DNA of 64,000 nt from Gammaproteobacteria bacterium (GCA_029242945.1 JAQWSZ010000012.1:943-64942); one strand, 5' to 3'; counted from the first letter of the stretch, positions 16,604 to 60,662 are shown. Notes: generated by a model not told the origin, from the sequence alone. Made by a program: numbers and translations.

Positions 16604-16621
16604 ACCCCGCATAAGCGGGGT
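16604..16621 (-). terminator. rho-independent terminator or attenuator between rpmA and obg
   Basis: On the minus strand: ACCCCGC-TTAT-GCGGGGT followed by a run of 9 T. It lies 23 nt after the rpmA stop and upstream of obg. Confidence 0.75.
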
Positions 16622-16643
16622 ATCATCTAATTATTTTCAAACG

Positions 16644-16907: not shown

Positions 16908-16922
16908 AATATTTTCTCTATT

Positions 16923-17270: not shown

Positions 17271-17393
17271 CTTAATGTTCCCTTTTATGCAATCATTCTA
17301 AGAAACCCGCAATTCTATAGATATAAGCTTTTTAATTCAATAACTTTAAAGGCTTTGGTATATTGTCTTCTCTAAAACACGACAAGATAGAAA

Positions 17394-18404: not shown

Positions 18405-18419
18405 GATATCTCATATTTC

Positions 18420-19367: not shown

Positions 19368-19376
19368 GGCTAATTT

Positions 19377-27271: not shown

Positions 27272-28147
27272 ATGAATTTTTGGAAGCAAAAAAAAGAAGA
27301 AAAATGGGTTGAAAGCCCGATGCATGATAATTGGTATCAATCCAGCTCTTATTTTCTAAGTTCTTTTGCTTTAATCACAACGGTTGATGAAAATGGAGTC
27401 ACTAGCATTGGACCTTATCAATTATCATTTCCATTTGGAGTCATACAAAGAAGAGAATGGATTGTTATTTCGAGAAGAGGCAGTAATACTTCAAAAAATA
27501 TCAAAAGAATTAAAAAATGTGCAATGAATTTCGTGGAATACGATAAAAAGCAAACTAAAAATATTGTTGACTTGGGTTATCCAGGACAAGATCCAGAAGA
27601 AAAAATGAAGGATTGTGTTTTTGAACTTGAAAATTCACCCACTGAAAATTATGTCAATGATCCAGAGAGACCTAAAATTATTAAATCTGCTTTCCAAGTC
27701 TTTGAATGTGAATTAAATGATAACCCTGAAGATTTTTACTACAAAGGAACTGATTCAACTGAATATATGTTGCTTAAAATAAATAAAATTCACCTTAAAG
27801 AAAAGTGGAGAAATAACCTTGATCTTGGCGATGATATGCAAATTCCAAATATGCCAATTAGCTTTGGGTTTAGAAATGCTAATCAGTTTTGGTTTGCTAA
27901 ACATAAGAAACCTTTTTGGCTCCCTACTCCTGAAGGCAAAGGAGCTGAGCATGAAGCGGTAATGTATATAGCAAACAGAATGGATGAAAACATTGTCTTC
28001 ACAGCAAATGCTTGTAAACAGTTATCTGGAATTCCAAAAGTTTTTGTTAAAAAAGCACTCAAAGGAATTATTGGTGAGGCAAAAAAACAAGGTGTTAGCA
28101 AAATAGATGAAGCATTTGTTAAAACCATTAATGAAAAAAGAGGTTAA
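27272..28147 (+). CDS. flavin-reductase-like (split-barrel) protein fused to a PCP_red-type C-terminal domain
   Basis: Flavin_Reduct-like core (SSFALITTVDENGVTSIGPYQLSFPFG ... IIKSAFQVFECEL). The C-terminus (VFTANACKQLSGIPKVFVKKALKGIIGEAKKQGVSKIDEAFV) shows the same helical-domain pattern as the divergent neighbour. Confidence 0.55.
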   Translation: MNFWKQKKEEKWVESPMHDNWYQSSSYFLSSFALITTVDENGVTSIGPYQLSFPFGVIQRREWIVISRRGSNTSKNIKRIKKCAMNFVEYDKKQTKNIVDLGYPGQDPEEKMKDCVFELENSPTENYVNDPERPKIIKSAFQVFECELNDNPEDFYYKGTDSTEYMLLKINKIHLKEKWRNNLDLGDDMQIPNMPISFGFRNANQFWFAKHKKPFWLPTPEGKGAEHEAVMYIANRMDENIVFTANACKQLSGIPKVFVKKALKGIIGEAKKQGVSKIDEAFVKTINEKRG

Positions 28148-35086: not shown

Positions 35087-36937
35087 ATGCCTGAATATAG
35101 ATCGAAAACTTCAACACATGGACGTAATATGGCTGGAGCTAGAGCTCTTTGGCGAGCTACTGGTATGAAAGAAAATGATTTTGGTAAACCCATTATTGCT
35201 ATTGCAAATTCATTCACACAATTTGTCCCTGGTCATGTTCATTTAAAAGATCTTGGTCAAATGGTTGCAAAAGAAATTGAAAACAGTGGTGGTGTTGCCA
35301 AAGAATTCAGCACCATAGCTGTTGATGATGGTATTGCTATGGGTCATTCAGGAATGCTCTACAGCCTTCCTTCTAGAGAACTTATTGCTGATGCAGTTGA
35401 ATACATGGTTAATGCCCATTGTGCTGATGCCCTAGTTTGTTTATCGAACTGTGACAAGATTACACCTGGAATGTTGATGGCTACAATGCGATTAAATATT
35501 CCAACTATTTTTGTTTCTGGAGGGCCTATGGAAGCAGGAAAAGGCATAGTAAAAGGTAAAGAAACAAAATTAGATCTCGTAGATGCAATGGTTCTTGCCG
35601 GAGATTCATCTGTCTCAGATGAAGATATTAAAGCAGTGGAACGTTCGGCCTGCCCAACTTGTGGTTCATGCTCAGGAATGTTTACAGCGAATTCCATGAA
35701 TTGTTTAGTAGAAGCTTTAGGGCTTGGCTTGCCTGGTAATGGAAGTGTCCTGGCAACCCATATCGATAGAAAAAATCTTTTTCTAGAAGCAGGAAAACAA
35801 ATTGTAAACATCACTAAAGATTACTATGAAAATGATAATGAAAGAGTTTTACCTCATCAAATTGCAAATAAAAAAGCTTTTGAAAATGCTATGACTCTGG
35901 ATATTGCAATGGGAGGATCGACAAATACTGTATTGCATATATTAGCAGCTGCAAAAGAAGCCAATATTGATTTCACCATTGAGGATATTGATCGCTTATC
36001 AAGAAGAGTGCCTAATTTATGTAAAGTGGCTCCAAGTAGTGATTATCATTTAGAAGACGTACATAGAGCCGGAGGAGTGATGGCTATTCTGGGTGAACTA
36101 GAAAAAGCTAAATTACTCAATATTGATAATAATACAGTTCATAGCGAGAGCATAAAATCAGCTATCGAAACTTGGGATATTAACAGAGCGCCAAGTAATA
36201 AGGTTGTAGAATTTTATTCTGCAGCACCAGGAATGATTCCAACGACACAACCTTTTTCTCAAAATAAACGTTATGAATCATTGGATGTTGATCGTGAAAA
36301 TGGCTGCATAAGAAATCTCGATAATGCCTACAGTCTTGATGGAGGGTTAGCGGTCCTTAAGGGAAATATTGCTAAAGAAGGATGCATTGTAAAAACTGCT
36401 GGAGTCGATGAAAATAACTTAACTTTTAAGGGGCCAGCACATGTCTTTGAAAGCCAAGATGATGCCGTTGATGGAATCATGAATAATGATGTTAAGTCTG
36501 GTGAAGTTGTGGTGATCCGCTATGAAGGGCCAAAGGGAGGACCAGGCATGCAAGAAATGCTCTACCCTACAAGCTATCTAAAAAGCAAAGGCTTGGGTAA
36601 AAAATGTGCATTAATAACAGATGGAAGATTCTCAGGAGGTACATCAGGACTATCAATTGGCCATATCTCGCCTGAAGCAGCATCTCAGGGTGAAATTGGG
36701 TTAATAAGAGATGGAGATATCATTAAAATTGATATACCAAACAGAATAATCGAGTTAGATCTAACTGCTCAAGAGTTAGAAAACAGAAGAATAGCTATGA
36801 ATAATTTAGGAAAAAAAGCATGGAAACCAAGATCTAGAAATAGAATCGTTAGTGACGCATTAAAAGCCTATGCCTTAATGGCATCTTCCGCATCAGATGG
36901 TGCAGTTCGAGTCGTACCAGAAGAAACAAATGAATAA
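35087..36937 (+). CDS. ilvD: dihydroxy-acid dehydratase
   Basis: [27 protein letters not shown]-terminus. Fe-S ligands CDKITPGM and [17 protein letters not shown]. Length 616 aa. Confidence 0.97.
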
Positions 36938-37586
36938 TAATAAAAATACTATAGCCATACTCGGTGGAACAGGTGCACTAGGCTCAGCGCTAGCGAAAAA
37001 ATGGGCTCAGAATGGCTATACAGTCATCATAGGTTCAAGAAAAAGAGAAAAAGCTGAAGCAACCGCAATTGAGTTAAATAAAGAGAAAGGATCTGAACTA
37101 ATTATTGGATTAGACTTAATAGAAGCTTCCAAAATTTGCAATTTAGCTGTTTTGGCGGTGCCATACTCCAGTCATCAAAAAACATTAGACGTGGTTAAAA
37201 ATCATTTAATAGGAAAAATCATTATCGATACAACTGTTCCTCTGCAAGGTAATGTCACAAAAGTAACATTACCTAATCAAGGGTCAGCTGCCTTAGAAGC
37301 ACAAATATTCTTAGGTGATGAAGTTAAAGTTGTTTCAGCATTGCAAAACATTGGTTCACATTTGATTGGATCAAATAAAAAAATTGATGCAGAAGTACTA
37401 GTAACAGGCAATGACAGAGAAGCAGTAAAACTAGTGATAGAACTAATCAATGACCTAGGTCTAACCTCTTGGGATGCTGGTTGCATAGAAAACTCAGCAG
37501 CTGCTGAAGCATTGACATCAATCCTAATCTTTATCAATAAAAGACATAAATTAAAATCTTCAGGTATAAAGATTACTTCACACTAA
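36930..37586 (+). CDS. npdG: NADPH-dependent F420 reductase (NpdG/Fno family)
   Basis: Start set at the ATG at 36930 ([43 protein letters not shown]). Rossmann fold and length are typical of NpdG. It overlaps the ilvD stop by 8 nt. Confidence 0.82.
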
Positions 37587-37606
37587 CATTATTCAAACCC
37601 TTACTG

Positions 37607-38392
37607 ATGGAAGCTAAATCCAAACCTAACTCATTAACTATCGAGGCAATTGAGGGCATTCAAGCTATTCAATCGGGTGATCATATTGGAGAAATAATAG
37701 TCAATGGGATCAAAAGAAATAATTTAATTATAGAAAATCATGATGTAATTGTCATCGCTCAAAAAATTATCTCAAAATCAGAAAACCGTTTAATTTCATT
37801 ATCAACAATTAACCCAAGTCAAGAAGCTATAAAAATTGCAAAAAAAGCCGATAAAGATCCAAGAATAGTTGAATTAATACTACAAGAATCTAGGTCAATT
37901 ATTAGAATAAGTAATGGTGTCATTATTGTTGAACATAAATTAGGTCATATCCTTGCGAATGCTGGGATTGATCGCTCTAATATAGAATCAGATAAAACTG
38001 ATGAAAAGGTACTACTGCTTCCCGAAAACCCAGATCAATCGGCACAAACCATAAGAAGTTATCTGTCCAAGAAAATAAATGTAAATGTTGGAGTTCTTAT
38101 AACAGATAGTATGGGTAGAGCATGGAGATTAGGAACCACAGGACATGCATTGGGTTCATCAGGCATTAAAACTTTAATTGACCTAAGGCAAAAAGCTGTT
38201 GATCTTTTTCAACGAGAACTACAGACTACATGCATTGCTTGGGCTGACCAACTCGCAGCAGCAGCAATGCTAGTTATGGGAGAGAGCAATGAAGGTATTC
38301 CAGTTGTGATCATTAAAGGCATTAATACACATTCTGAAACAGATACGATCAATGACCTAATTCGACCAAAAAATGAGGATTTATTTCGCTAA
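37607..38392 (+). CDS. cofE: coenzyme F420-0:L-glutamate ligase, short single-domain form
   Basis: Motifs VIVIAQKIISKSE, GHILANAGIDRSN and VLITDSMGRAWRLGTTGHALG. At 261 aa it has no C-terminal nitroreductase-fold domain. Confidence 0.88.
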   Translation: MEAKSKPNSLTIEAIEGIQAIQSGDHIGEIIVNGIKRNNLIIENHDVIVIAQKIISKSENRLISLSTINPSQEAIKIAKKADKDPRIVELILQESRSIIRISNGVIIVEHKLGHILANAGIDRSNIESDKTDEKVLLLPENPDQSAQTIRSYLSKKINVNVGVLITDSMGRAWRLGTTGHALGSSGIKTLIDLRQKAVDLFQRELQTTCIAWADQLAAAAMLVMGESNEGIPVVIIKGINTHSETDTINDLIRPKNEDLFR

Positions 38393-39354
38393 TGATAAAA
38401 AAGAAAAAAATCTTAGCATTGAGCGGTGGTGTTGGTGGAGCAAAATTATGTAGGGGCTTGGACCAAATCACTGATAAAGACGAATTATCAATTATTGCTA
38501 ATACCGGAGATGATTTCCTTCACTTAGGTTTTTATATCTCTCCTGATATTGACACATTGATCTATACGTTAGCAGGTGAAAACAATATAGAAACTGGCTG
38601 GGGTAGAACTGGAGAAACTTGGAAAGCTCATAATATCATGAGTGAACTTGGAGCTGATAATTGGTTTAAACTGGGTGATAAAGATTTAGAAATGCATGTA
38701 TATCGATCCAAAGAAATACAAAATGGAAAGAACTTGTCTGAGATTACTCAAAAAGTTTCAGAAATCTGGAATATCAACAGCAAAATTTTACCTATGAGTA
38801 ATCATTCGATCAAAACAATAATTGAGAGTGATATTGGTACACTCTCCTTTCAGGAATATTTTGTTAAAAAACAATGCATACCAAAGGTTAAATCAATTTC
38901 TTTCAAGCAAAAAAAAGCTGCGCCCTCGCAAACAGTCTTAGATGAAATGAATGACAATAATCTAAAGGCAATCATTCTTGCTCCATCAAACCCGTATCTT
39001 AGTATTGACCCAATTCTTTCTTTATCTGAAATAAGAACTTTTTTAAAGACTGCTTCTACTCCAGTGATTGCTGTTTCACCAGTAGTAGATGGTCAAGCCA
39101 TAAAAGGTCCCACAACAAAAATAATGGCAGAGCTGGGACTGGAACCATCGGTTGTCACAATAGCAAAACACTACGATGGCCTGATTGATGGTTTGATTCT
39201 TGATGTACTTGATCAAAATTTAGTATCGCAAGTTGATGATATGGGAATTAAAACTAAAGTGATGAATACTGTAATGCATAATGATCAAGATAAAATTCAA
39301 CTTGCACATGGTGTTTTAGATTTTGCCCAAGAAATAGAATTAGCAGGAGAATAA
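38392..39354 (+). CDS. cofD: 2-phospho-L-lactate (or analogue) transferase
   Basis: N-terminal ILALSGGVGGAKL motif and CofD/FbiA-type layout. 1-nt overlap with the cofE stop. Confidence 0.9.
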   Translation: MIKKKKILALSGGVGGAKLCRGLDQITDKDELSIIANTGDDFLHLGFYISPDIDTLIYTLAGENNIETGWGRTGETWKAHNIMSELGADNWFKLGDKDLEMHVYRSKEIQNGKNLSEITQKVSEIWNINSKILPMSNHSIKTIIESDIGTLSFQEYFVKKQCIPKVKSISFKQKKAAPSQTVLDEMNDNNLKAIILAPSNPYLSIDPILSLSEIRTFLKTASTPVIAVSPVVDGQAIKGPTTKIMAELGLEPSVVTIAKHYDGLIDGLILDVLDQNLVSQVDDMGIKTKVMNTVMHNDQDKIQLAHGVLDFAQEIELAGE

Positions 39355-39357
39355 GTA

Positions 39358-39948
39358 GTGTGGGCACTCATCCCAATCAATAACTTTAATGCATCAATGA
39401 GCAGACTTTCTCATCTATTAAATCAAGAAGAAAGAACAGAACTGACAAAAACATTAGCATCTCAAACACTAAAGATTCTCAATAAAATAGAAACAATAGA
39501 TAAAATTATAGTGATGACCCATGAATCAGAATGGATCCAATCTCTATCTATAAAGAAAATTATAACCATTGATGAGTTTGATGTTCATAGTTTAAAGAAA
39601 AAAATTGAAAAAGCATCAAACTGGATAGAAAAGCAAAATGTAAAAAGAATGATGTACTTATCCATTGACCTTCCTTTTGTTACACAAGCAGATGTAGAGC
39701 TATTTATAGATTCTCATAAAAAAGGAATAACTATAGTTGAAGCTAATAAAGATGGAGGTACCAATGCTTTAATATTAGATATGCCTAGAATGATTGATTT
39801 TCAATTTGGCGAGAATAGTTTTAAAAAACATGTACGCTCAGCTGAAAATGCCAATATAACAATCAGGATTTTTAATAACAAAGCATTGAGCTTGGATCTA
39901 GATGATGAAAATGACTTCAAGAAATTTAAATCCATTACTTCGCCATAA
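39358..39948 (+). CDS. cofC: phospholactate/PEP/3-PG guanylyltransferase (CofC/FbiD family)
   Basis: GTG start 3 nt after cofD. The WALIPINNFNASMSRLS N-terminus matches the IPvK....aKSRL pattern, plus a DGGTNAL motif. Length 196 aa. Confidence 0.75.
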   Translation: MWALIPINNFNASMSRLSHLLNQEERTELTKTLASQTLKILNKIETIDKIIVMTHESEWIQSLSIKKIITIDEFDVHSLKKKIEKASNWIEKQNVKRMMYLSIDLPFVTQADVELFIDSHKKGITIVEANKDGGTNALILDMPRMIDFQFGENSFKKHVRSAENANITIRIFNNKALSLDLDDENDFKKFKSITSP

Positions 39949-40007
39949 ATTCTCTTTTATCATAAATAATAATTGTTATACAAAGCTTAAAAAGCTATAA
40001 ATACACA

Positions 40008-42389
40008 ATGCCAAATCCTTCAATAAATCAATATATAGAGTTAAGTCAATCGATGCCCTTAGAGGAGTTGATGAAACAAGCAAGAGTACTAAGGGATCAA
40101 GAGAAAAATGTTATTACCTTCTCCAAGAAAGTTTTTATACCCCTTACGATGTTGTGTCGAGATGTATGCCATTATTGCACTTTTGCTAAAGTCCCAAGAA
40201 AACTAAAAAACCCTTACCTTAGACCTGAAGAGATTTTAAAAATTGCAAAAGATGGTCAGTTGAACCAATGCAAAGAAGCCCTATTCACTTTAGGTGAAAA
40301 ACCAGAATTGCGCTATGAAGTGGCGAAAAATGACCTAAAATATCTAGGCTATGAATCAACACTTGATTACCTTTTCGCGATGGCAGAACTTGTCTTGGAA
40401 GAAACAGGTCTTTTGCCTCATTTAAATCCAGGCACTATGAATTCTGAAGAAATAGCCCGATTAAGAGAGATCTCTCCTTCAATGGGTATAATGCTTGAAT
40501 CTTCCTCTGATCGATTATGTGAGAAGGGAATGCCTCATTTTGGGTCTCCAGATAAAAATCCAAATATTAGATTAGAAACTATGAGGCATATAGGTCAACA
40601 ATCGATTCCACTGACTACTGGTATTCTTATTGGTATTGGTGAGACACGCCAAGAGAGAATTGAAAGCTTATTGGAAATCAAAAAATTGCATAATCAATAT
40701 AGCCATATACAAGAAATTATTATTCAAAATTTTGTACCCAAGCCTGATACAAAAATGAAGAATGCAACCGCACCTGATTTATCAGAACTTTTGTGGACCT
40801 TATCAATGTCTCGACTAATGTTTGGTCAAGAAATGAATATACAATGTCCACCTAACTTAAACATGTCTGCACTGCCACAAGTCATTGATGCTGGCATTAA
40901 TGATTGGGGAGGAATCTCTCCAGTCACTGAAGATCATGTAAATCCAGAATCCCCATGGCCAGAATTAAAATTACTGGAAAGAGTGACGACTGAAAAAGGC
41001 AAGAAACTTCAAGAAAGATTAACGATATACCCTGAATACATCTCTCAGGATAAACAATGGTTTAATCCACAGCTAACACCCTATATAAATGAATTATCTG
41101 ATTCTGAAGGCTTTGGACGTGAAAATTTATGGCGTTGCGGTGAATCTTTAGATAGCCCTCAAACTGGAAAATATGAAAATTGGATCAACCAGAATCATCA
41201 ACCCAATCTCAATATTAGCTCAATCGTTCATAAAGCAAGCAATGGAATGGAGTTGGACCCAACTGAAATCAAGGACCTATTCAAAGTAAGAGGAAATGAT
41301 TTAGATTATGTTTTGAATCATGCCAATGCACTCAGAGAAAGAGTAAATGGTGATGCTGTTAGTTATGTTGTAACGCGTAATATTAACTATACGAATATCT
41401 GTAAATATAGATGTCATTTCTGCGCTTTCTCCAAGGGAAAAACAAAAGAAAATCTTCGCGGTAAACCCTATCTAATTTCATTCGAAGAAATCGCAAACAG
41501 AGCATTAGAGGCTTGGAATCGTGGTGCTACTGAGGTATGCCTTCAAGGAGGTATTCACCCTAATTTTGATGGAGAAACTTATTTAAACATTTGTAGAGCT
41601 ATCAAAGAAAGAGTTCCTGATATTCATATCCACGCATTTTCAGCCCTAGAAATACATCATGGTGCTTCAACATTAGGTTATTCTTTAGAACAATACTTAG
41701 AACTACTTAAACAAGCAGGACTAAAAACCATGCCGGGTACTGCTGCTGAAATATTAGATGACTCAGTTAGGAGTAAAATTTGTCCCGATAAAATAAATAC
41801 TTCAGAATGGTTAGAAGTTATAAGTACAGCTCATAAAGTTGGTATCAAGACCACATCGACCATTATGTTTGGCCATCAGGAGACTATTGATGATTGGGCT
41901 ACTCATCTGCTTTGCTTGAGAAACCTGCAGAAAAAAACAGGAGGAATTACTGAATTTATACCCTTGCCATATGTCAGTATGGAATCACCAATGTATAAAA
42001 GAGGACATGCAAGACCAGGGCCTACTTTTAGAGAAGTTCTTTTAATGCATGCAATTGGAAGACTGAGTCTTCACCCATTAATTGACAATATACAAACAAG
42101 CTGGGTCAAACTAGGACAATCTGGAGCATTAAGTTGTCTCAATGCAGGAGTTAATGACATGGGAGGTACTCTCATGAATGAATCTATTTCAAAAGCAGCT
42201 GGTAGTATACATGGTCAAGAGTTTACTCCTGATCGGATGGAATCCTTCATCTTAAGTGCCAATAGAACTCCTCTACTAAGAGACACTCTTTATAATAAAA
42301 TTAATAAGAATAGGATGATACATCAATCAGCCATTTCTTCGTCTATGAACATGCAAATGTTATTGGAAAGTGCCTACCCAAGTATCTAA
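40008..42389 (+). CDS. fbiC: FO (7,8-didemethyl-8-hydroxy-5-deazariboflavin) synthase, fused CofG+CofH
   Basis: Two radical-SAM modules with CxxxCxxC motifs: CRDVCHYCTF (N-terminal half) and CKYRCHFCAF (C-terminal half). Length 793 aa. Confidence 0.95.
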   Translation: MPNPSINQYIELSQSMPLEELMKQARVLRDQEKNVITFSKKVFIPLTMLCRDVCHYCTFAKVPRKLKNPYLRPEEILKIAKDGQLNQCKEALFTLGEKPELRYEVAKNDLKYLGYESTLDYLFAMAELVLEETGLLPHLNPGTMNSEEIARLREISPSMGIMLESSSDRLCEKGMPHFGSPDKNPNIRLETMRHIGQQSIPLTTGILIGIGETRQERIESLLEIKKLHNQYSHIQEIIIQNFVPKPDTKMKNATAPDLSELLWTLSMSRLMFGQEMNIQCPPNLNMSALPQVIDAGINDWGGISPVTEDHVNPESPWPELKLLERVTTEKGKKLQERLTIYPEYISQDKQWFNPQLTPYINELSDSEGFGRENLWRCGESLDSPQTGKYENWINQNHQPNLNISSIVHKASNGMELDPTEIKDLFKVRGNDLDYVLNHANALRERVNGDAVSYVVTRNINYTNICKYRCHFCAFSKGKTKENLRGKPYLISFEEIANRALEAWNRGATEVCLQGGIHPNFDGETYLNICRAIKERVPDIHIHAFSALEIHHGASTLGYSLEQYLELLKQAGLKTMPGTAAEILDDSVRSKICPDKINTSEWLEVISTAHKVGIKTTSTIMFGHQETIDDWATHLLCLRNLQKKTGGITEFIPLPYVSMESPMYKRGHARPGPTFREVLLMHAIGRLSLHPLIDNIQTSWVKLGQSGALSCLNAGVNDMGGTLMNESISKAAGSIHGQEFTPDRMESFILSANRTPLLRDTLYNKINKNRMIHQSAISSSMNMQMLLESAYPSI

Positions 42390-42417
42390 TTTTCAGAATT
42401 CATAAATTCTACAGAAC

Positions 42418-43239
42418 ATGAAAAAACAAAATTTTAAGACAATAATTATTATTCTGACAATAAACATAGCTTCTTGCTCTGTTGTTGGAGAACTCTGGTA
42501 TGAAAGAATAGATCAATACATTGCAAATCAAATACTGGAGTATGCTAGTTTCACAGAGAATCAAAAAGTTTTCATAAGAAACTCAGCTGCAGATTTTAAA
42601 AATTGGAATACAAAATCTGAATTACCAAAATACAAAGAACTGCTTCTTAAATTCAAAGCTTTAGACAATCGAACAACAAGAAAGGATATAGATAATATTT
42701 ACCTAAGCGGTATAGAACTTAGTACTAATACTAGAGATTTTTTATTACCTTATTTTGTTGAATTATCTAGAACACTTTCAGATGAACAAATTCAAGAGAT
42801 TGAAATGCATTTAAATTCATTGAGTGAAGAAAAAAGAAGAACACTAAAAAAAGAAACAAAAGAGTATCACGAAATTCTGAGTAAAAGTTTTATAAGATTC
42901 TTCAAGCTATTCGGAGTCAAACTGAATACTAAACAAAAAAATATAATTTCTTTTTATATTTCCAATATAGAAGATTCTAGATACCAATTAATTGATAACA
43001 AAGAAACATGGGATCAAGAATTAATAAGGATATTAGCTTTAAAAAATGATAATAATTTATTAATAGATCATGTCAATTCTCTTAATTCTGAAGATGAAAA
43101 TACCAGAACTGTTATAAATAATATCACTGCAAAAATCATAGCTTCTTTTGACGAGAAACAATCAAAAAAATTTCAAAAAAGATTAACAAGGTTTGTGAAA
43201 ACAATCGATGATATTTTGGAAACCAAGATCAAGGATTAA
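42418..43239 (+). CDS. DUF6279-like lipoprotein
   Basis: Lipobox LTINIASC. The following WYERIDQYIANQILEYASFTENQKVFIRN...WNTKSELPKYKELL matches the remembered DUF6279 pattern (LGY.rld.l..w.l..Yvdl...Q.....l....WHR..ELP.Y). Confidence 0.55.
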   Translation: MKKQNFKTIIIILTINIASCSVVGELWYERIDQYIANQILEYASFTENQKVFIRNSAADFKNWNTKSELPKYKELLLKFKALDNRTTRKDIDNIYLSGIELSTNTRDFLLPYFVELSRTLSDEQIQEIEMHLNSLSEEKRRTLKKETKEYHEILSKSFIRFFKLFGVKLNTKQKNIISFYISNIEDSRYQLIDNKETWDQELIRILALKNDNNLLIDHVNSLNSEDENTRTVINNITAKIIASFDEKQSKKFQKRLTRFVKTIDDILETKIKD

Positions 43240-43343
43240 CGAACTTATATAAATTTATTTATTCGTAACTATTTTTTTCAGATATATAAAAAAGGAACTA
43301 TATATGCTTGCATTATATTTGTAATTGATTATTATTCCTTTAT

Positions 43344-43362
43344 GTTAATGATAATCATTATC
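43344..43362. promoter_or_regulatory. Fur box
   Basis: GTTAATGATAATCATTATC matches the 19-bp consensus GATAATGATAATCATTATC at 18 of 19 positions. It sits 40 nt upstream of the TonB-dependent receptor ATG. Confidence 0.8.
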
Positions 43363-43401
43363 AGTTAATATAAATCATATTTAATTAAGGATAGATATAA
43401 A

Positions 43402-45582
43402 ATGAATTTCATAAGAATCTGGTTTTTGTCATTCTCTCTTATAATCTTTATTAATGTTGAAGCAGCAAATCATGGGTTAGATAAAATTGATAACATAACG
43501 ATCATAGGTAAAAAATCTCTTCCTGGTTCTGCAACAAAAGTTTCTGCACAAGACTTAGAAAAATTTGAAACTATGGATATACATAAGGCACTAGCAAGCG
43601 TCCCTGGTATCAATGTTAGACCTGAGGAAGGTTATGGATTGCGGCCTAATATTAGCATAAGAGGAACCTACCCTGATCGATCAGGTAAAATTACATTGAT
43701 GGAAGATGGAATTCTAATAGCACCAGCTCCTTATGCTGCATCTTCTGCTTATTATTTCCCAACATTCTCAAGAATCAATGGTATTGAAGTAGTCAAAGGA
43801 CCAGCAGCAATCAAAACTGGGCCATACACTATTGGTGGTGCTATAAACTTAATCAGCACTCCTATTCCTGAATCAACTTCAGGTTTCTTGAATCAAGAAT
43901 TTGGTTCTGATGGGAATATGAAGTCCCATTTATTCTATGGCTCTTCTTCAGAAAATTTTGGTTTTCTTGTGGAAGGATTGAAGCATAAAACTGACGGTTT
44001 CGATGATATGGAGCATACCAATGGAGATACTGGCTTTGATAAAACTGATGTAGTTGTTAAATTGAGATTTAACAATGATCCTAATGCAGATCTCTACCAG
44101 CAATTAGATATTAAGTTCCAAGATTCTGATGAAATATCGGATCAATCTTATGTTGGATTAACGGAAAGTGATTATAGATCCAATGCTCATATGCGATATG
44201 GTTTTACTGATTATGACCAAATGGATAATGAACATAATCAAGTAGTTTTCAGCTACAGTATGAGTACTGGAAATATAGATTTGAGTGCTACTTATTATGT
44301 AAATGATTTTGCAAGAGATTGGTTCAAAACAGATAAGATAGGATATGGTGGGTCTGATAAAGGCATTAACAATCTTATTGATTATGCTAATGCAGGAGAC
44401 GCTGTTGCCATTTCAATTCTTCGAGGTACCAATACAACTGCAGAGTCAATTAAATTAAAACATAATAATCGTTCCTATAGCTCAGAAGGCCTTATTGTTA
44501 ATTCAAATATTAAACTGAACAATCAAACAATTACCATTGGATATAGAGATACAAAAGACGATGAAGATCGTATGCAATGGTATGAAAGAACTAATTGGGC
44601 TAATGGCATTTTATCGGCTCTAGTGGCAAGTAGTATGCCTGGATATTCAAGCAATAATAGAGTTACTACAGCTCAAGCAAGTGCATTCTTTATCAGTAAT
44701 GAAATAGATTTTGGTCAACTAACTATCACTGCTGGTATAAGATCTGAAAATTGGAAAATTGCCCAAGAAAGGTATATAGATACAGCAAGAACTAAAGTTA
44801 ATACTGCAAAAGGTTACCCAAAGACTCTAGCAAATAATGATGAAACACTATTTGGTATTGGTTTTGACTATGATCTTGATAATGGTTTTTCCTTCTTTGG
44901 AGGGTTTCATGAAGGGTTTACTCCAACAACAGGTGGCGCTGATCCCGAGTCAGCAGATAATATTGAAATTGGTCTAAAATATTTAAGCGATAACAACTCA
45001 TTTGAAATTATCCGATTTGATACAAAGTATGCGAATATGTTCGGTGAGTGTAGAGCTTCATCATCTGGAGTAATTGAAGGTTGTGATATTGGTGATACAT
45101 TCAATGCTGGAGCATCTAGTATTAGTGGTTTTGAAATAGCTGCAACTACTCAACATATTAATGAAACAGGTAATAAAATTTCAGCTGGTCTCAGTTACAC
45201 AAATACAGATGCCAAGTTTGATACCACTTTTGATAGTGATTTCTGGGGTAATGTAAGAGCAGGTATGAGCCTTCCGAATCTTCCAAAATCTCAGTTAACT
45301 ATGTTTTTAAGCCTAGAAACAGTGACTGGCTGGAATACTCACTTGAGAATGATGTCCTATGGAGAAACCTGTTCAATTGTAGCCTGTGAAGCTAATACTG
45401 GTATAGATTCATATTCAATTACTGATCTATCTTTTTCCAAGACAATCAATAAAGAAACAGATTTTTATATGGTCATAGATAATATAACGGATTCAAAAAA
45501 TATTGTTGCTAGAGCTCCTAAGAATGGTATTAGAACTCAAAGACCAAGGTCATATAATTTGGGAGTTCGTTACAGATTCTAA
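43402..45582 (+). CDS. TonB-dependent outer-membrane receptor (iron/siderophore type by regulation)
   Basis: Signal peptide, a plug domain (ITIIGKK...VPGINVRPEEGYGLRPNISIRG) and a long beta-barrel ending in the terminal NLGVRYRF. Preceded by a Fur box. Confidence 0.9.
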   Translation: MNFIRIWFLSFSLIIFINVEAANHGLDKIDNITIIGKKSLPGSATKVSAQDLEKFETMDIHKALASVPGINVRPEEGYGLRPNISIRGTYPDRSGKITLMEDGILIAPAPYAASSAYYFPTFSRINGIEVVKGPAAIKTGPYTIGGAINLISTPIPESTSGFLNQEFGSDGNMKSHLFYGSSSENFGFLVEGLKHKTDGFDDMEHTNGDTGFDKTDVVVKLRFNNDPNADLYQQLDIKFQDSDEISDQSYVGLTESDYRSNAHMRYGFTDYDQMDNEHNQVVFSYSMSTGNIDLSATYYVNDFARDWFKTDKIGYGGSDKGINNLIDYANAGDAVAISILRGTNTTAESIKLKHNNRSYSSEGLIVNSNIKLNNQTITIGYRDTKDDEDRMQWYERTNWANGILSALVASSMPGYSSNNRVTTAQASAFFISNEIDFGQLTITAGIRSENWKIAQERYIDTARTKVNTAKGYPKTLANNDETLFGIGFDYDLDNGFSFFGGFHEGFTPTTGGADPESADNIEIGLKYLSDNNSFEIIRFDTKYANMFGECRASSSGVIEGCDIGDTFNAGASSISGFEIAATTQHINETGNKISAGLSYTNTDAKFDTTFDSDFWGNVRAGMSLPNLPKSQLTMFLSLETVTGWNTHLRMMSYGETCSIVACEANTGIDSYSITDLSFSKTINKETDFYMVIDNITDSKNIVARAPKNGIRTQRPRSYNLGVRYRF

Positions 45583-47254: not shown

Positions 47255-47647
47255 TTAAAATAAATCTCTAATAGGTGGGCTCAAATAGGCCAGTGAAATC
47301 TTGAGACCCGCCATCAAACTCGCTATTTGTACCATCACAATAGATAAGGGAGACATAATTGTAAGTTCTGGCATGATTGAGGCGAATACATAAAAGACGG
47401 CAATAATTAATATCCATAACTCACGAGAATACCGAACAAAAAAGCACATCAAAATATCCATAATGAAGGCCAATAGTGCGAAGACTAATTGCAAATTATA
47501 AGCATTACTAAACCCATCAGACGCCAATTGCCCATAATAACCATTTACGGACTCAGGAAAATCGTATGTAAAATCTAAAGCTACTGCAATAAATATCATT
47601 GCTATTGGGGTAAAAATTAAAAAGCGAAAATAAGTTTTATAATTCAT
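47255..47647 (-). CDS. small polytopic membrane protein (hypothetical)
   Basis: Start moved to the ATG at 47647 (MNYKTYFRFLIFTPIAMIFIAV), which avoids overlap with the upstream LLM gene. Four hydrophobic helices. Confidence 0.5.
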   Translation of the reverse strand: MNYKTYFRFLIFTPIAMIFIAVALDFTYDFPESVNGYYGQLASDGFSNAYNLQLVFALLAFIMDILMCFFVRYSRELWILIIAVFYVFASIMPELTIMSPLSIVMVQIASLMAGLKISLAYLSPPIRDLF

Positions 47648-47657
47648 GATGCTTTTA

Positions 47658-48698
47658 CTAAAGAACTTCTTGAGCAATGACACGCATTGCTTCTTTACTG
47701 ACATTTCCCAATACTAATGTTCCTAGCTTACCTGTTTTATCTAATTCTTTCCAAGATTGAAGTTTTTCTTTAATTCTTTCTGGCGGCCCGATAAGAGCGC
47801 ACTCATCAACTAATTCATCTGGTACAGCCATAGTAGCCTCTTCTTTTTTACCTGCTAAATAGAGTTCTTGTATGGTTTCAGCGGCTTCCTCATAGCCTAA
47901 TCGCTTGGCATAATCAGTATAAAAATTCTTTGATTTTGCTCCCATACCACCAATATATAATGCAAACATAGGTTTCATAGCCATCGTACAGAACTGAATG
48001 TTATCTCCCATAGCAACAGGAATAAAAGGTGCAACATCAAAACTACTATAATCTTTATTAGAGTCAGATTTCTCAAAACCTTCCTCAATATATTCACCTA
48101 CTAGATTAAATTTATTAGGACTCATCCAGATTGGAAACACGCCATCTGCAACTTCTCCAGAAGTCCTTAAGCCAGCGGGTGTTATGGATGCAGTAAATAT
48201 TTTTAAATCACCTGTACTATGCAAAATACTTTTTAAAGGCTTACCAAGACCTGAAGAATTTTCACCTTTGAAAGGAATCTGATAATGAAACCCTTCATGA
48301 GTAAGTGCTTCTTTTCTTGCAATAACTTTTCTCACAATGGATATATATTCTTTGGTTCGTGTTAATGGTCTGCCATATGCTTGGCCATACCAACCTTCTA
48401 CAACCTGAGGTCCTGAAGGACCCAAACCAAGCACAAAACGATTATTGGATAAGGCGTTTAATGATAATGCAGTCATAGCCGTCATAGTTGGTGTACGAGC
48501 CTGCATTTGCATAATTGCTGTTCCAACTTTTATATTAGTTGTTTGAGCAAGTATATAAGAAGCAACTGAAACAGCATCAGAGCCATAGGATTCTGCAGCC
48601 CAAACTGAGTCAAATCCAAGATTTTCCGCTTCTAAAATATCGTCCATTGGAATATTAAGTTTTGCAGGTGAATATCCTAATCCTATTCCTAATTTCAT
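47658..48698 (-). CDS. LLM-class F420-dependent oxidoreductase (Rv3520c-like subfamily)
   Basis: MKLGIGLGY...ENLGFDSVWAAESYGSDAVSVASYILAQTTNIKVGTAIMQMQARTPTMTAMTALSLNALSNNRFVLGLGPSGPQVVEGWYGQAYGRPLTRTKEYISIVR closely follows the remembered consensus of mycobacterial F420-dependent luciferase-like oxidoreductases. Confidence 0.8.
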   Translation of the reverse strand: MKLGIGLGYSPAKLNIPMDDILEAENLGFDSVWAAESYGSDAVSVASYILAQTTNIKVGTAIMQMQARTPTMTAMTALSLNALSNNRFVLGLGPSGPQVVEGWYGQAYGRPLTRTKEYISIVRKVIARKEALTHEGFHYQIPFKGENSSGLGKPLKSILHSTGDLKIFTASITPAGLRTSGEVADGVFPIWMSPNKFNLVGEYIEEGFEKSDSNKDYSSFDVAPFIPVAMGDNIQFCTMAMKPMFALYIGGMGAKSKNFYTDYAKRLGYEEAAETIQELYLAGKKEEATMAVPDELVDECALIGPPERIKEKLQSWKELDKTGKLGTLVLGNVSKEAMRVIAQEVL

Positions 48699-48870: not shown

Positions 48871-50988
48871 ATGTCTAAAATTAAATGGCAAGAAAAAGCA
48901 ACTGATGAGCTCAACAGTGAGTCATTAGAAGAGTTGACATGGAAAACATTAGAAGGAATTGATGTTAAACCTCTCTACACCTCAGAAGATCTTGAAAACA
49001 TAGCTCATTTGGATTCTTTTCCAGGTTTTGCTCCCTATACTAGGGGACCAAGAGCAACTATGTATACCAAGAGACCATGGACTGTGAGACAGTATTCTGG
49101 TTTTTCTACAGCTGAAGAATCAAATAAATTTTATCGTGACAATATTGAAGCCGGTCAAACAGGTCTATCAGTTGCTTTTGATCTAGCCACCCATCGAGGC
49201 TATGATTCTGATCATTCTAGAGTCACAGGTGATGTTGGAAAAGCCGGCGTAGCAATTGACAGTGTTGAAGATATGAAAATACTCTTTGATAAGATCCCAT
49301 TGGATAAAATGAGCGTTTCTATGACTATGAATGGTGCAGTGATTCCAATTATGGCTATGTATATTGTAGCTGCAGAAGAACAAGGTGTGAATCAAACACT
49401 GTTAAAGGGCACACTCCAGAATGATATCTTAAAAGAATTTATGGTCAGAAATACATACATATACCCGCCCAATCAATCTATGAGAATTGTAGCTGATATT
49501 ATTGCCTATTCTTCAAAGTACCTACCTACTTTCAATTCTGTTTCTATTTCTGGTTATCATATGTTGGAAGCTGGCGCTACCTGCACCCAAGAGTTAGCAT
49601 ATACTCTAGCAGATGGTCTTGAATACGTTAGAGCTGCTATAGATAAAGGGCTTGATATTGATGACTTTGCACCTCGACTATCTTTTTTCTTTGGCATTGG
49701 TATGAATTTCTTTATGGAAATTGCCAAATTAAGAGCAGCCAGACTTCTTTGGTCAGAACTGATAGAGAAAGAATTTCAGCCTAAAAACCAAAAATCATTG
49801 ATGCTTAGAACGCATTGTCAGACTTCAGGTGTAAGCCTAACAAGTCAAGATCCTTATAATAATATTATGAGAACGACCATCGAAGCCATGGCAGCTGTTT
49901 TAGGAGGAACACAGTCATTGCATACTAATTCTTTTGATGAAGCTCTTGCTTTGCCAACACCCTTCTCTGCTCAGATAGCTAGAAATACACAATTGGTTCT
50001 AAGAGAAGAAACAGGCATTACTAAAGTTGTCGATCCATTGGCTGGTTCTTACTACCTTGAATCTTTAACAAATTCTCTTGTTAATGAAGCGAGAAAGTTA
50101 ATTGAAGAAGCTGAAGAACTCGGTGGTATGACCAAAGCAGTTCAAGCTGGTGTGCCAAAATTAAGAATTGAAGAATCGGCAGCTATTAGGCAAGCCAAAA
50201 TAGACAAAAAAGAAGAAATCATAGTTGGAGTAAATAAATATCAATCTGATGATAAAGCTCAAGTGGATATTCTCTCTATTGATAATGAAGACGTGAGAAA
50301 TAAACAACTGGAGAAGCTAAAAATACTTAAGAGTTCTAGAAATGAATCAACTTGCCAGAAAACTCTTAAAACTTTAGAACATGCATCAAAAGACAAAACC
50401 GCTAATTTACTCGAAGTTGCTATTGAGGCTGCAAGAGCCAGAGCCACAGTGGGTGAAATTTCCATGGCTATGGAAACAGTCTTTGGTCGACATCAAGCGA
50501 ATTCTCAATCCATTAGTGGTGTTTATCGTAGTGAGTATGAAGGAGATAAAAATTTTATGAGTATCGAGAAAAAAATCTTAGAATTTGAAAAAAATAATGG
50601 AAGAAGACCAAGAATGTTAGTGGTTAAATTAGGACAAGATGGGCATGATAGAGGTGCTAAAGTGATAGCGACAGCATTTGCAGATATGGGTTTTGATGTA
50701 GATATAGGCCCATTATTTCAAACCCCTGAAGAGGCGGCAAAACAGGCCATTGAGAACGATGTTCATATTGTAGGAGTGTCCACACAAGCAGCGGGTCATA
50801 AAACACTGGTTCCAATGCTAATAGACGCATTATCAAAAGAAAATTCTGATAACATTCTTGTAGTTTGTGGAGGGATCATTCCTGAACAAGATATACCTGA
50901 GCTTGAATCAATTGGAGTAGGAGCAGTTTTTGGTCCAGGTACAAATATAAATAGTGCTGCAATCAAAGTTTTAGATCTAATCAAATAG
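48871..50988 (+). CDS. mcm: methylmalonyl-CoA mutase, single-chain (catalytic + B12-binding domains)
   Basis: Mutase TIM-barrel motifs ([29 protein letters not shown]-type [10 protein letters not shown]). C-terminal cobalamin-binding [24 protein letters not shown]. Confidence 0.95.
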
Positions 50989-50991
50989 AAC

Positions 50992-52524
50992 ATGAAAGAA
51001 AATATACAAGAGTTAGAGAAAAGAAAACAAGCTGCTCGTGAGGGTGGCGGTGAAGTACGAATCAAAAAGCAACATGCAAAAGGAAAGCTAACAGCTAGAG
51101 AACGATTGGAGATACTTCTTGATGATGGAAGTTTCGAAGAATGGGATATGTTTGTCGAACATAGGGCTATTGATTTTGGAATGGACAAACAAAAGATACC
51201 AGGCGATGGAGTAGTAACTGGTTATGGAAAAATTAATGGTAAATTAGTCTACGTTTATAGCCAAGATTTCACAGTCTTTGGTGGCTCTTTATCCGAATCC
51301 CATGCTGAGAAAATTTGTAAAGTAATGGATCATGCCGTTCAGAATGGTGCACCAATTATAGGATTGAATGATTCAGGTGGAGCAAGAATACAAGAAGGTG
51401 TTGTGTCACTTGGTGGATACGCAGAAGTATTTAAAAGAAATGTTCTCGCATCCGGGGTTGTGCCTCAAATTTCTTTGGTCATGGGTCCCTGTGCCGGTGG
51501 TGCTGTTTACTCTCCTGCAATGACTGATTTTATTTTTATGGTTGAAGACAGTTCTTATATGTTTGTCACGGGCCCGGATGTTGTTAAAACAGTCACTCAT
51601 GAAGAAGTTACTGCTGAAGAGTTAGGCGGTGCGTCAACACACAGTAAAAAATCTGGAGTCGCTGATCTAACTTTTAATAATGATACTGAAGCTTTATTGA
51701 TGACTCGTGAATTTATAAGTTATCTCCCTCAAAACAATAAGGAAAAATCACCCACTATTGAGTGTCAAGACTCTGCAAATAGAGAAGACCTATCTCTGGA
51801 TACTTTAATTCCTGAAGATCCAGCTAAGCCCTATGATATAAAAGAAGTCATCCATAAAGTCGCTGATGAAGGAGATTTTTTTGAAGTTCAATCAAACTAT
51901 GCCCAAAACATCGTAATTGGCTTTATTCGCCTAAACGGATCAACAGTTGGTGTTGTTGCTAATCAGCCTATGGTATTGGCGGGCTGTCTCGATATTAATT
52001 CCTCTATAAAGGGTGCTCGATTTGTAAGATTTTGTGATGCATTTAATATTCCCATTCTAACTCTTGTTGATGTCCCGGGATTCATGCCAGGAACTTCTCA
52101 AGAATATGGAGGCATTATCAAACATGGAGCGAAACTTTTATTTGCCTATGCAGAGGCCACAGTTCCAAAAGTAACAATGATTACAAGAAAAGCATATGGA
52201 GGAGCTTATGATGTCATGAGCTCTAAACACATACGAGGAGATGTTAATTTCGCTTGGCCTTCGGCAGAAATAGCTGTGATGGGACCAAAAGGTGCTGTTG
52301 AAATCATTTTCAGACAAGACATTGGAGATGAAAATAAAATTGAAAAGAGAACGGATGAATATAGAGAAAAATTTGCTAATCCATTTATCGCTGCAGGACG
52401 TGGCTATATTGATGATATTATCATGCCCCACAAGAGCAGAGAAAAATTGATTAATTCCTTTGAAATGTTAAAAAATAAAGAACAAATCAATCCTTGGCGT
52501 AAACACGACAATATACCCTTATAA
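50992..52524 (+). CDS. pccB: propionyl-CoA carboxylase beta subunit (carboxyltransferase)
   Basis: 510-aa carboxyltransferase with [27 protein letters not shown] and PGFMPG motifs. Located between mcm and pccA. Confidence 0.92.
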
Positions 52525-52530
52525 AACATT

Positions 52531-54495
52531 ATGTTTAAAAAAATACTGATAGCCAATCGTGGAGAAATTGCTTGTAGAGTTATTAAAACATGTCAATCCA
52601 TGGGCATTAAAACTGTGGCAGTATATTCTGATGCTGATATTTACTCCATGCATGTCGATATGGCTGATGAAGCAATAAATATTGGCGGATCCGCATCATC
52701 GGAAAGCTATCTTGTCATTGAAAATATCCTCAATGCTTGTGAAGCCACAGGTGCAGAAGCGGTTCATCCAGGTTATGGATTTCTATCAGAAAATGAATCT
52801 TTTGCGAAACAACTAATGGCAAAAAATATTGCTTTTATAGGTCCTAATATAGAAGCCATTATCAATATGGGAGATAAAATTGAGTCTAAAAAAATAGCTG
52901 AAAAAGCAGGAGTCAATGTTATTCCAGGTTTTACTCAAGCACTCAAAGATGCAGATCAAGCAGTTGAAGTAGCTAAAAGTATTGGCTACCCAGTAATGCT
53001 CAAAGCCAGTGCTGGTGGAGGAGGTAAAGGCATGAGGGTGGTCAATAGTGATGCAGAATGCCGTGATGGGTTTGAAAGGGCTCAAAATGAAAGTAGAACT
53101 AGCTTTGGTGACGATCGAGTTTTTGCAGAAAAATTCATAACAGAACCACACCATATAGAAATACAAATTCTCGCTGATGGTGAAGGTAATACGATATATA
53201 TTGGGGAACGTGAATGCTCTATTCAAAGAAGGCATCAAAAAGTTATTGAAGAATCACCTTCTCCTTTTATTAATGAAGATACTAGAGAAAAAATGGGTGC
53301 ACAAGCTGTGGCATTAGCCAAGGCAGTTAACTACCAATCGGCAGGCACAGTTGAATTTATTGTTGATAAGAATCAACAGTTTTATTTTCTAGAAATGAAC
53401 ACCCGTCTTCAAGTTGAGCATCCAGTAACTGAAATGGTTTCTGGGCTGGATCTTGTTGAGCAAATGATTTTGATTGCTTCAGGTGAAAAATTAAACATCA
53501 AGCAAGAGGATATCCAAATAAAAGGATGGGCGATGGAATGTAGAATCTATGCTGAAGATCCTTATAGAGATTTTATGCCATCGATAGGTAGGTTGACTTC
53601 TTACCTGACTCCAACTGAATCTCAATTCATTAGAGTGGATACTGGCTTCAGAGAGGGCAGTGAAGTTTCTATGTTTTATGATCCTATGATTGCAAAATTG
53701 ATCACATATGGTCCTGATAGAAATACAGCAAGAGAAAATATGTTAGTTGCATTAGATTCTTACTATATTGCAGGTGTTTCACATAATCTAAATTTTCTCA
53801 GCTCTATCATGCAGAACTCTGAATTTATTAGTGGGTATACCACGACAAATTTTATTGCAGAGCATTATCCAGATGGCTTCCAAGGTGAATATATCTCCAA
53901 AGAAATGAATCAACTATTTGCCTCTGTATTAGCTTGCTATCATCATCAAAAAAAAGAACGCATCCAAACCCTGATTACGAATAAAACTGAATGGTCAGTA
54001 ATTATAAATGATGATTTATTTACTCTTAAATTAGAAAATAATAATGCTAACTTTACAATTCATGAAGCAGAACATACTAAAAAATATCAAATTAATAAAA
54101 GTGCCAATAACCCAATTGTTGAGGTCATAACAGAGGATCAACAACATTTATTCAAAATAGAGGAAAATTATCCCGGCTATACCCTAACTTATAGAGGTCG
54201 AGTAATTAAAGCTTTAGTCACTAGGAAAAGAACGGCTGAGTTAAACCAATTAATGCCAAAGAAAACTCCACCCGACTTATCTAAATTTCTTTTATCACCA
54301 ATGCCTGGACTTCTCATAAAAGTCTGTGTGACTGAAAATCAAACAGTTAAAGCTGGGGAAGAACTGGCTGTGGTAGAAGCCATGAAAATGGAAAATAGCT
54401 TAAGAGCACCCGAAGAGGTAAAAATAAAATCGATATTAGCTGAAGAAGGCGATAATCTAATGGTTGACCAAACTATACTTGAATTTGAGGACTGA
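52531..54495 (+). CDS. pccA: propionyl-CoA carboxylase alpha subunit (biotin carboxylase + BCCP)
   Basis: MFKKILIANRGEIACRVIKT N-terminus, ATP-grasp GGGGKGMRVV, and the biotinyl-lysine motif EAMKMEN near the C-terminus. Confidence 0.92.
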   Translation: MFKKILIANRGEIACRVIKTCQSMGIKTVAVYSDADIYSMHVDMADEAINIGGSASSESYLVIENILNACEATGAEAVHPGYGFLSENESFAKQLMAKNIAFIGPNIEAIINMGDKIESKKIAEKAGVNVIPGFTQALKDADQAVEVAKSIGYPVMLKASAGGGGKGMRVVNSDAECRDGFERAQNESRTSFGDDRVFAEKFITEPHHIEIQILADGEGNTIYIGERECSIQRRHQKVIEESPSPFINEDTREKMGAQAVALAKAVNYQSAGTVEFIVDKNQQFYFLEMNTRLQVEHPVTEMVSGLDLVEQMILIASGEKLNIKQEDIQIKGWAMECRIYAEDPYRDFMPSIGRLTSYLTPTESQFIRVDTGFREGSEVSMFYDPMIAKLITYGPDRNTARENMLVALDSYYIAGVSHNLNFLSSIMQNSEFISGYTTTNFIAEHYPDGFQGEYISKEMNQLFASVLACYHHQKKERIQTLITNKTEWSVIINDDLFTLKLENNNANFTIHEAEHTKKYQINKSANNPIVEVITEDQQHLFKIEENYPGYTLTYRGRVIKALVTRKRTAELNQLMPKKTPPDLSKFLLSPMPGLLIKVCVTENQTVKAGEELAVVEAMKMENSLRAPEEVKIKSILAEEGDNLMVDQTILEFED

Positions 54496-60660: not shown

Positions 60661-60662
60661 TC

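Follow-up and report, generated by a model that had tools for sequence, protein, structure and literature searches.

A predicted coenzyme F420 operon of the proteobacterial type, with a divergent CofC, in a low-GC marine gammaproteobacterium

Described F420 systems and the five-gene operon

In actinobacteria the products of fbiA, fbiB, fbiC and fbiD lead from phosphoenolpyruvate (PEP) by way of dehydro-F420-0 to coenzyme F420, and FbiB carries a C-terminal FMN-binding nitroreductase domain; Thermomicrobium roseum is a bacterium with a single-domain CofE and a stand-alone dehydro-F420 reductase of the nitroreductase superfamily, FbiE. Archaea follow a 2-phospholactate (2-PL) route with CofC, CofD, CofE and an FO synthase split into CofG and CofH, and the Gram-negative Mycetohabitans (Paraburkholderia) rhizoxinica makes a variant from 3-phosphoglycerate (3-PG), 3PG-F420. 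Here we compare with these systems a predicted F420 operon, npdG-cofE-cofD-cofC-fbiC, in a 64,000-nt stretch of DNA from a gammaproteobacterium (GCA_029242945.1, JAQWSZ010000012.1:943-64942; this whole stretch is called the window). An earlier note on the window had proposed the pathway, and its summary of the literature (the nitroreductase domain of FbiB, the stand-alone enzyme of Thermomicrobia and 3PG-F420 in Mycetohabitans) is accurate.

We conclude that the locus is probably a working operon for making and recycling F420, of the kind that is standard in Proteobacteria, and that its carrier is an abundant, uncultured marine gammaproteobacterium of low GC content. The five genes of the operon, together with a nearby gene for a predicted user of the cofactor, are the following.

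36930..37586, + strand: npdG (fno), NADPH-dependent F420 reductase, by which F420H2 is recycled from NADPH (TIGR01915, PF03807; 218 aa)
37607..38392, + strand: cofE, single-domain F420-0:gamma-glutamyl ligase (TIGR01916; 261 aa)
38392..39354, + strand: cofD, phospho-acid transferase joining the activated three-carbon acid to FO (TIGR01819; 320 aa)
39358..39948, + strand: cofC, guanylyltransferase of the 2-PL/PEP type that has lost both conserved N-terminal lysines (TIGR03552; GTG start, 196 aa)
40008..42389, + strand: fbiC, fused CofG-CofH FO synthase with two radical-SAM domains (NF006687; 793 aa)
47658..48698, - strand: LLM-class F420-dependent oxidoreductase of the Rv3520c subfamily, predicted cofactor user (TIGR03559, PF00296; 346 aa)

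These five open reading frames (ORFs) are a genuine and complete F420 gene set, placed as in the earlier note, whose pathway call, coordinates, spacers and quoted motifs were all reproduced in the profile searches, the ORF table and the translations. We took the curated cut-offs of NCBIfam as the criterion of family membership, and all five proteins exceed them, with Pfam in agreement: NpdG scores 167.7 bits against a cut-off of 149.8 (profile positions 3-220 of 220; PF03807 at 7e-15), CofE 252.2 against 180.65, CofD 281 against 257.45, CofC 129.7 against 105, and FbiC 1070.9 against 1018, the last with a CofG domain at residues 37-360 (514.8) and a CofH domain at 419-765 (535.5). The translations carry ANAGIDRSN, ITDSMGRAWRLGTTGHALG and LSGGVGGAKL, and FbiC has two CxxxCxxC motifs, CRDVCHYC and CKYRCHFC. 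All five are co-directional, with spacers of 20, -1, 3 and 59 nt in the order given; the start of npdG follows the public gene calls (36930, giving 218 aa), the mechanical ORF beginning at 36897. Measured against two related metagenome-assembled genomes (MAGs; L001 and L002), all five genes are under purifying selection, with dN/dS between 0.07 and 0.31 (npdG 0.08, cofD 0.11, cofC 0.20-0.31, fbiC 0.07-0.08), and highly conserved columns are kept at 77 of 78 sites in CofD (columns at least 93% conserved among 54 proteobacterial CofD) and at 54 of 56 in CofE.

We infer that the pathway is active. FbiC would make the deazaflavin FO, CofC would use GTP to activate a phospho-acid of three carbons (most probably 2-PL or PEP), CofD would transfer the activated acid onto FO, and the single-domain CofE would add gamma-glutamates; Fno (NpdG) would reduce F420 with NADPH, and the nearby LLM-class enzyme, probably along with enzymes encoded elsewhere in the genome, would use F420 or F420H2. 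The product is most likely ordinary lactyl-F420, formed from 2-PL or from PEP with the help of a reductase encoded elsewhere.

The arrangement of the genes is the standard proteobacterial one. A CofD search of GTDB, at one genome for each species, gave 62 proteobacterial loci, spanning Gammaproteobacteria (Woeseiaceae, Steroidobacteraceae, Porticoccaceae, Halomonas, Marinobacter, Pseudomonas saliphila and the OMG group) and Alphaproteobacteria. The exact order npdG-cofE-cofD-cofC-fbiC on one strand occurs at 25 of them and the same order with cofC fused to fbiC at 8 more (33/62 together), the remainder being mostly truncated contigs. Among the cultured bacteria that carry the layout are Pseudomonas saliphila (16W4-4-3), Halomonas pelophila (CS7) and Steroidobacter agaridevorans; in Chelativorans sp. 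J32 an antisense ORF masks cofE and cofD, so that the ORF table holds npdG, cofC and fbiC. With these clusters the window shares the gene order, the single-domain CofE, the fused FbiC, the lack of an adjacent nitroreductase, the Gly in CofC discussed below and, at 22 loci, an LLM-class F420 enzyme in the vicinity, whereas only the clade of the window lacks both N-terminal CofC lysines, and its low-GC pelagic host and an operon abutting ilvD also set it apart. The actinobacterial system resembles that of the window in its homologous FbiC, FbiA/CofD and FbiD/CofC, and the LLM subfamily is named for its Rv3520c; the F420 genes are scattered in mycobacteria and form one operon in the window. The archaeal system shares with it the single-domain CofE, a CofC of the 2-PL/PEP type and a source of 2-PL that is unknown in both, but has a split rather than a fused FO synthase.

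The closest genomes are low-GC (35-38%) marine MAGs, namely L001 and L002 (CofD 89-90% identical) and L003 and L004 (56-58%), one related MAG being labelled Woeseia sp. in the records; the GC content of the host itself is about 34%. All four retain the neighbourhood aceE-ilvD-operon-FTR1-membrane protein-LLM-mcm, including the adjacency of ilvD and npdG. The operon genes are already annotated as such in public databases: the exact proteins of the window stand in NCBI MAG records as FO synthase/CofH, 2-phospho-L-lactate guanylyltransferase and LLM class F420-dependent oxidoreductase. The host lineage is widespread, since the exact CofC sequence is found in 154 blocks of a metagenome collection; sequences from Tara Oceans are members of the FbiC and LLM clusters. 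The earlier note had called F420 use in pelagic Gammaproteobacteria poorly explored, and a literature search indeed found essentially no description of it.

On one point that note was wrong, for it had seen no typical F420 clients in the flanks. The LLM-class oxidoreductase at 47658-48698 (-), 5.3 kb downstream of fbiC, scores 366.1 bits against TIGR03559 (cut-off 335) and matches PF00296 at 3.9e-61, and its best PDB matches are the F420-dependent Mer proteins (methylene-tetrahydromethanopterin reductases). It is syntenic with the operon in L001-L004, at 83-91% identity, and belongs to a classic actinobacterial and archaeal family of F420 clients, as a predicted user of the cofactor. Between the window and L003/L004 the LLM protein is 83% identical, whereas the biosynthetic proteins are just 46-70% identical; the client, which adjoins the methylmalonyl-CoA genes, is under tighter constraint than the pathway that feeds it.

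CofE, CofC and the three-carbon precursor

The description of CofE as a short form in the earlier note is confirmed by profile coverage. At 261 aa it fills the TIGR01916 profile from position 3 to 244 of 244 and is a single-domain protein, while against the FbiB profile NF009810 it covers only positions 7-243 of 449 (188 bits, where 304 is the cut-off). Its nearest matches of known structure are PDB 2PHN, 2G9I and 7ULD (1.7e-43; 2PHN over the whole chain), the best being the CofE of Archaeoglobus fulgidus, of about 250 aa, which aligns with it end to end. A reductase fused to CofE or hidden by wrong gene models was considered and rejected: CofE stops at 261 aa with a 1-nt overlap into cofD, and public gene calls agree. 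The same note had reported the absence of a nitroreductase-family ORF from the 64 kb. This too holds, for a Pfam scan of the whole window, covering some 55 ORFs of 90 aa or more, gave no match to PF00881, the ten ORFs that had matched nothing still yielded no nitroreductase when rescanned at E<=5, and the next 10 kb past the right end of the window contain no ORF of the family. T. roseum is unlike the window locus in this respect, its stand-alone FbiE having no counterpart in the window, in the 10 kb to the right of it or in the recurrent neighbours of other operons: the ten gene clusters that recur most often in the flanks of the 62 loci, as far as scanned (the LLM enzyme, CoA-transferases, enoyl-CoA hydratase, cysDN/cysQ-type genes, a TetR regulator, a hydrolase and an SDR), include no nitroreductase (0/10). 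A short CofE without a nearby reductase is present, then, but is nothing special to this locus; it is shared with the proteobacterial layout at large and belongs to a general gap for archaea and Gram-negatives. What reduces dehydro-F420 ("CofX") and where 2-PL comes from are described as open questions in archaea and "some bacteria" by Bashiri 2019 and in most Gram-negatives by Braga 2019, and the gap is field-wide, not a peculiarity of this locus.

A flavoprotein-like ORF lies at 27272-28147 (+). Its 291-aa product has faint matches to PNPOx_N and DUF447, a split-barrel FMN-binding fold and an 82% identical counterpart in L004; the family has more than 480 matches at about 50% identity, with the JGI label "flavin reductase (DIM6/NTAB) family". 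One might take it for a candidate dehydro-F420 reductase, but nothing ties it to F420: the PNPOx_N match is faint, the ORF is 9 kb off, and in the synteny of close relatives it stands beside the operon only in L004. We rejected it.

For CofC, residues were mapped by alignment to the best PDB matches, 7P97 (3e-9) and 2I5E (2e-8), and then to 50 proteobacterial homologues. Activation of 3-PG is reported to need Ser (or Thr) at position 162 of M. rhizoxinica CofC, where enzymes for 2-PL or PEP have Gly, with His145, Met91 and Cys95 assisting (Hasan et al. 2022, PMC8764529). The corresponding residues of the window are Gly151 (Ser162), Gly133 (His145), Leu79 (Met91) and Ile83 (Cys95), and Gly occupies the diagnostic site in all 88 clade members (the window counted). 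It is also found there in 48 of the 53 proteobacterial sequences outside the clade and, among global representatives, in 149 of 150. CofC also retains the Mg-binding Asp triad (D104 and the D-x-D motif), Arg16, the GTN loop (T135, N136) and the carboxylate-binding S154. Because Gly151, Gly133, Leu79 and Ile83 stand at the published determinants, CofC appears to be of the non-3-PG type, and 3PG-F420 is an unlikely product. The earlier note had left the precursor open among 2-PL, PEP and 3-PG; this stands for the first two, and the third is disfavoured. Of two Gram-negative enzymes assayed in vitro, the CofC proteins of Paracoccus denitrificans and Oligotropha carboxidovorans, both preferred 2-PL, but neither CofC sequence nor assays with a foreign CofD can separate 2-PL from PEP, CofD acting as a second filter (Hasan et al. 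2022, PMC8764529). The remaining choice is between 2-PL and PEP with a remote reductase, and sequence cannot decide it.

The one element at this locus that specialists might not expect is a clade of CofC proteins without the lysine at the P-alpha contact. The usual N-terminal signature, P-[VIL]-K-x6-K-[ST]-R-L, is replaced in the window and throughout this marine clade (87 sequence clusters, 43-100% identity) by P-I-N-x5-[MF]-[ST]-R-L. N8 takes the place of K20 in Mycetohabitans sp. B3 and K17 in Mycobacterium tuberculosis (Mtb), and M14 that of K26 and K23 in the same two proteins and K13 in Methanosarcina mazei; the M. mazei enzyme keeps both lysines (Lys8 and Lys13). In the structures, the NZ atom of the second lysine (K26 = K23 = K13) contacts a P-alpha oxygen of the bound nucleotide product and the backbone of the first (K20 = K17 = K8) contacts the ribose (Hasan et al. 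2022, Table S1, PMC8764529), while the side chain of Mtb FbiD Lys17 is said to bind PEP (Hasan et al. 2022, main text, PMC8764529).

An exhaustive HMMER search of 1.84 billion representatives returned 3988 CofC-like proteins, and the clade is isolated among them because just 2 of the 3988 fall within E<=1e-30 of the window CofC. Among the next 148 representatives every one with a residue at the P-alpha position has Lys there (147/147), as do 47 of 48 other proteobacterial CofC; Met, Leu or Phe occurs only in the clade. The pocket motif LNxAL is likewise changed to L(K/S)xKI, Lys82 being gained only there (Ala or Ser in others), and the clade is 21-28% identical to other proteobacterial CofC. 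The notion that this CofC evolves exceptionally fast did not hold up: at a CofD identity of about 45-50%, CofC identity is 23% across the clade boundary as against 29% among other Proteobacteria, and CofC is simply less conserved than any other protein of the pathway. The homology of the clade enzymes is beyond question, their catalytic equivalence unproven; CofC may well be active with a relocated or dispensable phosphate-binding lysine, and a changed preference for substrate or nucleotide is possible.

Within the clade (P0001-P0087) two subclades co-vary, one with Phe14, Phe79, Asn133 and Ser80 and the other, which includes the window, with Met14, Leu79, Gly133 and Lys80. This co-variation suggests that the pocket is still being remodelled.

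Weighing the possible products

The reading of the locus as a working operon for ordinary F420 has a precedent in the Alphaproteobacteria P. denitrificans and O. carboxidovorans, in which F420 has been detected (PMC8498797). Several points weigh against it. In both of these species F420 was found only in traces (PMC8498797); neither a source of 2-PL nor a dehydro-F420 reductase was found in about 74 kb of DNA; and the P-alpha lysine, present in all three solved homologues, is lost here, so that normal catalysis cannot simply be assumed. Among the ways in which the locus could still yield ordinary F420 is the PEP route, a sub-variant of the preferred reading that we hold as possible, if tentatively, in which CofC and CofD would make dehydro-F420-0 for reduction by a remote FbiE-like nitroreductase or by an unrelated "CofX". 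PEP is ubiquitous, and the literature knows no 2-PL-forming enzyme in any organism; some PEP was turned over by all CofC homologues tested, and in the Gram-negative Ca. Entotheonella the preference moves towards PEP when CofC is paired with its own CofD (PMC8764529). The DNA inspected, moreover, is about 74 kb of a genome, and a flavin-reductase-like split-barrel protein, without link to F420, is encoded 9 kb upstream. Set against this route are the absence of a nitroreductase-fold gene from the window and from the ten recurrent flanking clusters of the 62 loci, the single-domain CofE, and the Asn that stands in place of the Mtb FbiD lysine said to bind PEP.

Alternatively, the remodelled CofC might pick another precursor or nucleotide, and the marine clade would then make F420 with a non-canonical tail. 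We consider this improbable, although it would account for much of what is peculiar to the clade: its isolation (2/3988 at E<=1e-30), a change from Lys to Met, Phe or Leu at the P-alpha contact that is unique among 150 representatives, the change from Lys to Asn at the equivalent of Mtb Lys17, and the L(K/S)xKI motif with its clade-specific gain of Lys82, these new residues being kept across 87 clusters (43-100% identity) at a dN/dS of 0.2-0.3. The specificity of CofC has also been switched experimentally by two substitutions (PMC8764529). In its fullest form, which seems just as doubtful, the clade would work not on 2-PL, PEP or 3-PG with GTP but on another precursor or nucleotide, giving a fourth, hitherto undescribed F420 variant for which a dehydro-F420 reductase would be unneeded. 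However, the residues that hold the three-carbon acid are kept (Ser154, Thr135, Asn136, Gly151 and three Mg-binding Asp), CofD and CofE show no matching remodelling, the contact lost with the lysine is to the phosphate of the nucleotide and not to the part of the substrate that varies, so that the effect may be one of rate or mechanism only, and no other protein of the operon generally evolves as fast as CofC. Less probable again is 3PG-F420 as made by M. rhizoxinica, a similarity that rests on a common architecture (Gram-negative host, short CofE, no dehydro-F420 reductase) and on the CofC fold, the best PDB match being the 3-PG enzyme 7P97; all four determinants are of the 2-PL/PEP type (Gly151, Gly133, Leu79 and Ile83, against Ser162, His145, Met91 and Cys95 there), Gly is invariant at the diagnostic site across the clade, and Mycetohabitans is described in the literature as without known F420-dependent enzymes, whereas the window locus has both an LLM enzyme and Fno. 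A catalytically dead CofC, with the locus supplying FO only, for instance as a photolyase antenna, is very improbable to a like degree. FO by itself is useful to many bacteria, and the loss of the P-alpha lysine would fit, but purifying selection acts on cofC, cofD, cofE and fno alike, CofC retains its Mg-binding Asp triad, Arg16 and GTN loop, an F420-dependent LLM enzyme is conserved nearby, and a general Pfam scan found no photolyase in the 64-kb window.

Gene neighbourhood and wider meaning

Two further genes border the operon.

35087..36937, + strand: ilvD (dihydroxy-acid dehydratase), a 616-aa ORF named from the NCBI record; context gene
42418..43239, + strand: DUF6279 lipoprotein-like ORF (PF19795 at 5.5e-12), co-directional with the operon

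The operon is probably co-transcribed with ilvD, which is plausible because the ilvD stop overlaps the npdG ATG by 8 nt and no terminator-like site lies on the + strand from ilvD to 43500; promoter-like sites in a companion scan were at chance level. Downstream of fbiC the order is DUF6279 ORF, TonB-dependent receptor, FTR1 permease, Hsp20, small membrane protein and LLM, followed by mcm/pccB/pccA/meaB/epimerase at 48871-55896, and the gene calls agree in this with the earlier note, which had described flanks of metabolism (ilvD and the methylmalonyl pathway). The DUF6279 ORF starts 28 nt (42390-42417) after fbiC, but follows it only in the window, L001 and L002, and not in L003, L004 or other loci; as it occurs only in these three closest genomes we rejected it as a sixth operon gene, and it is probably outside the F420 pathway. 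The ORF at 47255-47704 (-) was rejected as a small FDOR-type F420 enzyme, being a hydrophobic membrane protein with no family match.

The DUF6279 ORF and the TonB-dependent receptor together (42418-45582) stand between fbiC and FTR1 in the window, L001 and L002, and are a recent insertion adjoining the operon, because they are absent from L003 and L004. The left edge of the window (25-3612) holds a tRNA-Thr(CGT) at 3539-3612 (-), an ORF with an endonuclease VII domain (1881-2654), a faint recombinase match (1282-1884) and several ORFs without a match, and may be the edge of an integrated mobile element. Towards the other end, at 59488-63888, is a cluster for oxygenation of aromatic compounds, consisting of an FAD monooxygenase and two Rieske/VanA-like oxygenases, which is extended just past the right end (L069:11123-21122) by an HpaB-type hydroxylase, hydrolases, MFS transporters and a CoA-transferase.

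The related loci show some variations of their own. A fusion protein of some 980-1010 aa, with CofC at the N-terminal end of FbiC, is encoded in Steroidobacteraceae and related MAGs (L032:11014-13953, L040:10984-13917, L041, L044, L045, L048, L054, L011 and L029); such a fusion would place guanylyltransferase and FO synthase in one polypeptide, and we know of no description of it. In Marinobacter, Pseudomonas saliphila and Halomonas (L005, L008, L013 at 14252-20942, and L014) a conserved co-directional block directly 3' of fbiC encodes a CysD-like PAPS-reductase-domain protein, a CysN/C-like GTPase-APS kinase fusion and a CysQ-like protein of the inositol-monophosphatase family, and also holds a TetR regulator gene and two further ORFs. 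Genes of sulfate activation are thereby linked to those for F420. In Alphaproteobacteria (L010, L015-L018, L021, L028, L046, L055, L058 and L059) fbiC is followed by a luciferase-like oxidoreductase, probably F420-dependent, and two CoA-transferase subunits, with an enoyl-CoA hydratase at some loci, a set that may point to an operon-linked acyl-CoA pathway in which F420 is used.

With this locus a marine, low-GC gammaproteobacterial lineage joins the predicted producers of F420, equipped with a recycling enzyme and at least one client enzyme. This is useful for the reading of ocean metagenomes and at the same time unsurprising, given that the genes were annotated and that F420 genes had been reported earlier as abundant in marine metagenomes. 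The choice between 2-PL and PEP and the identity of the reductase are a genuine gap of the field, on which the locus offers no special handle, with the possible exception of its atypical CofC. What appears to be new here is this clade of CofC proteins, without the P-alpha lysine yet under purifying selection; the rest belongs to a known proteobacterial class. If the clade did make a fourth F420 variant, that variant would be the product of one of the ocean's common gammaproteobacteria, and a new specificity of CofC, if true, would matter both for our view of cofactor diversity and for the engineering of F420 production.

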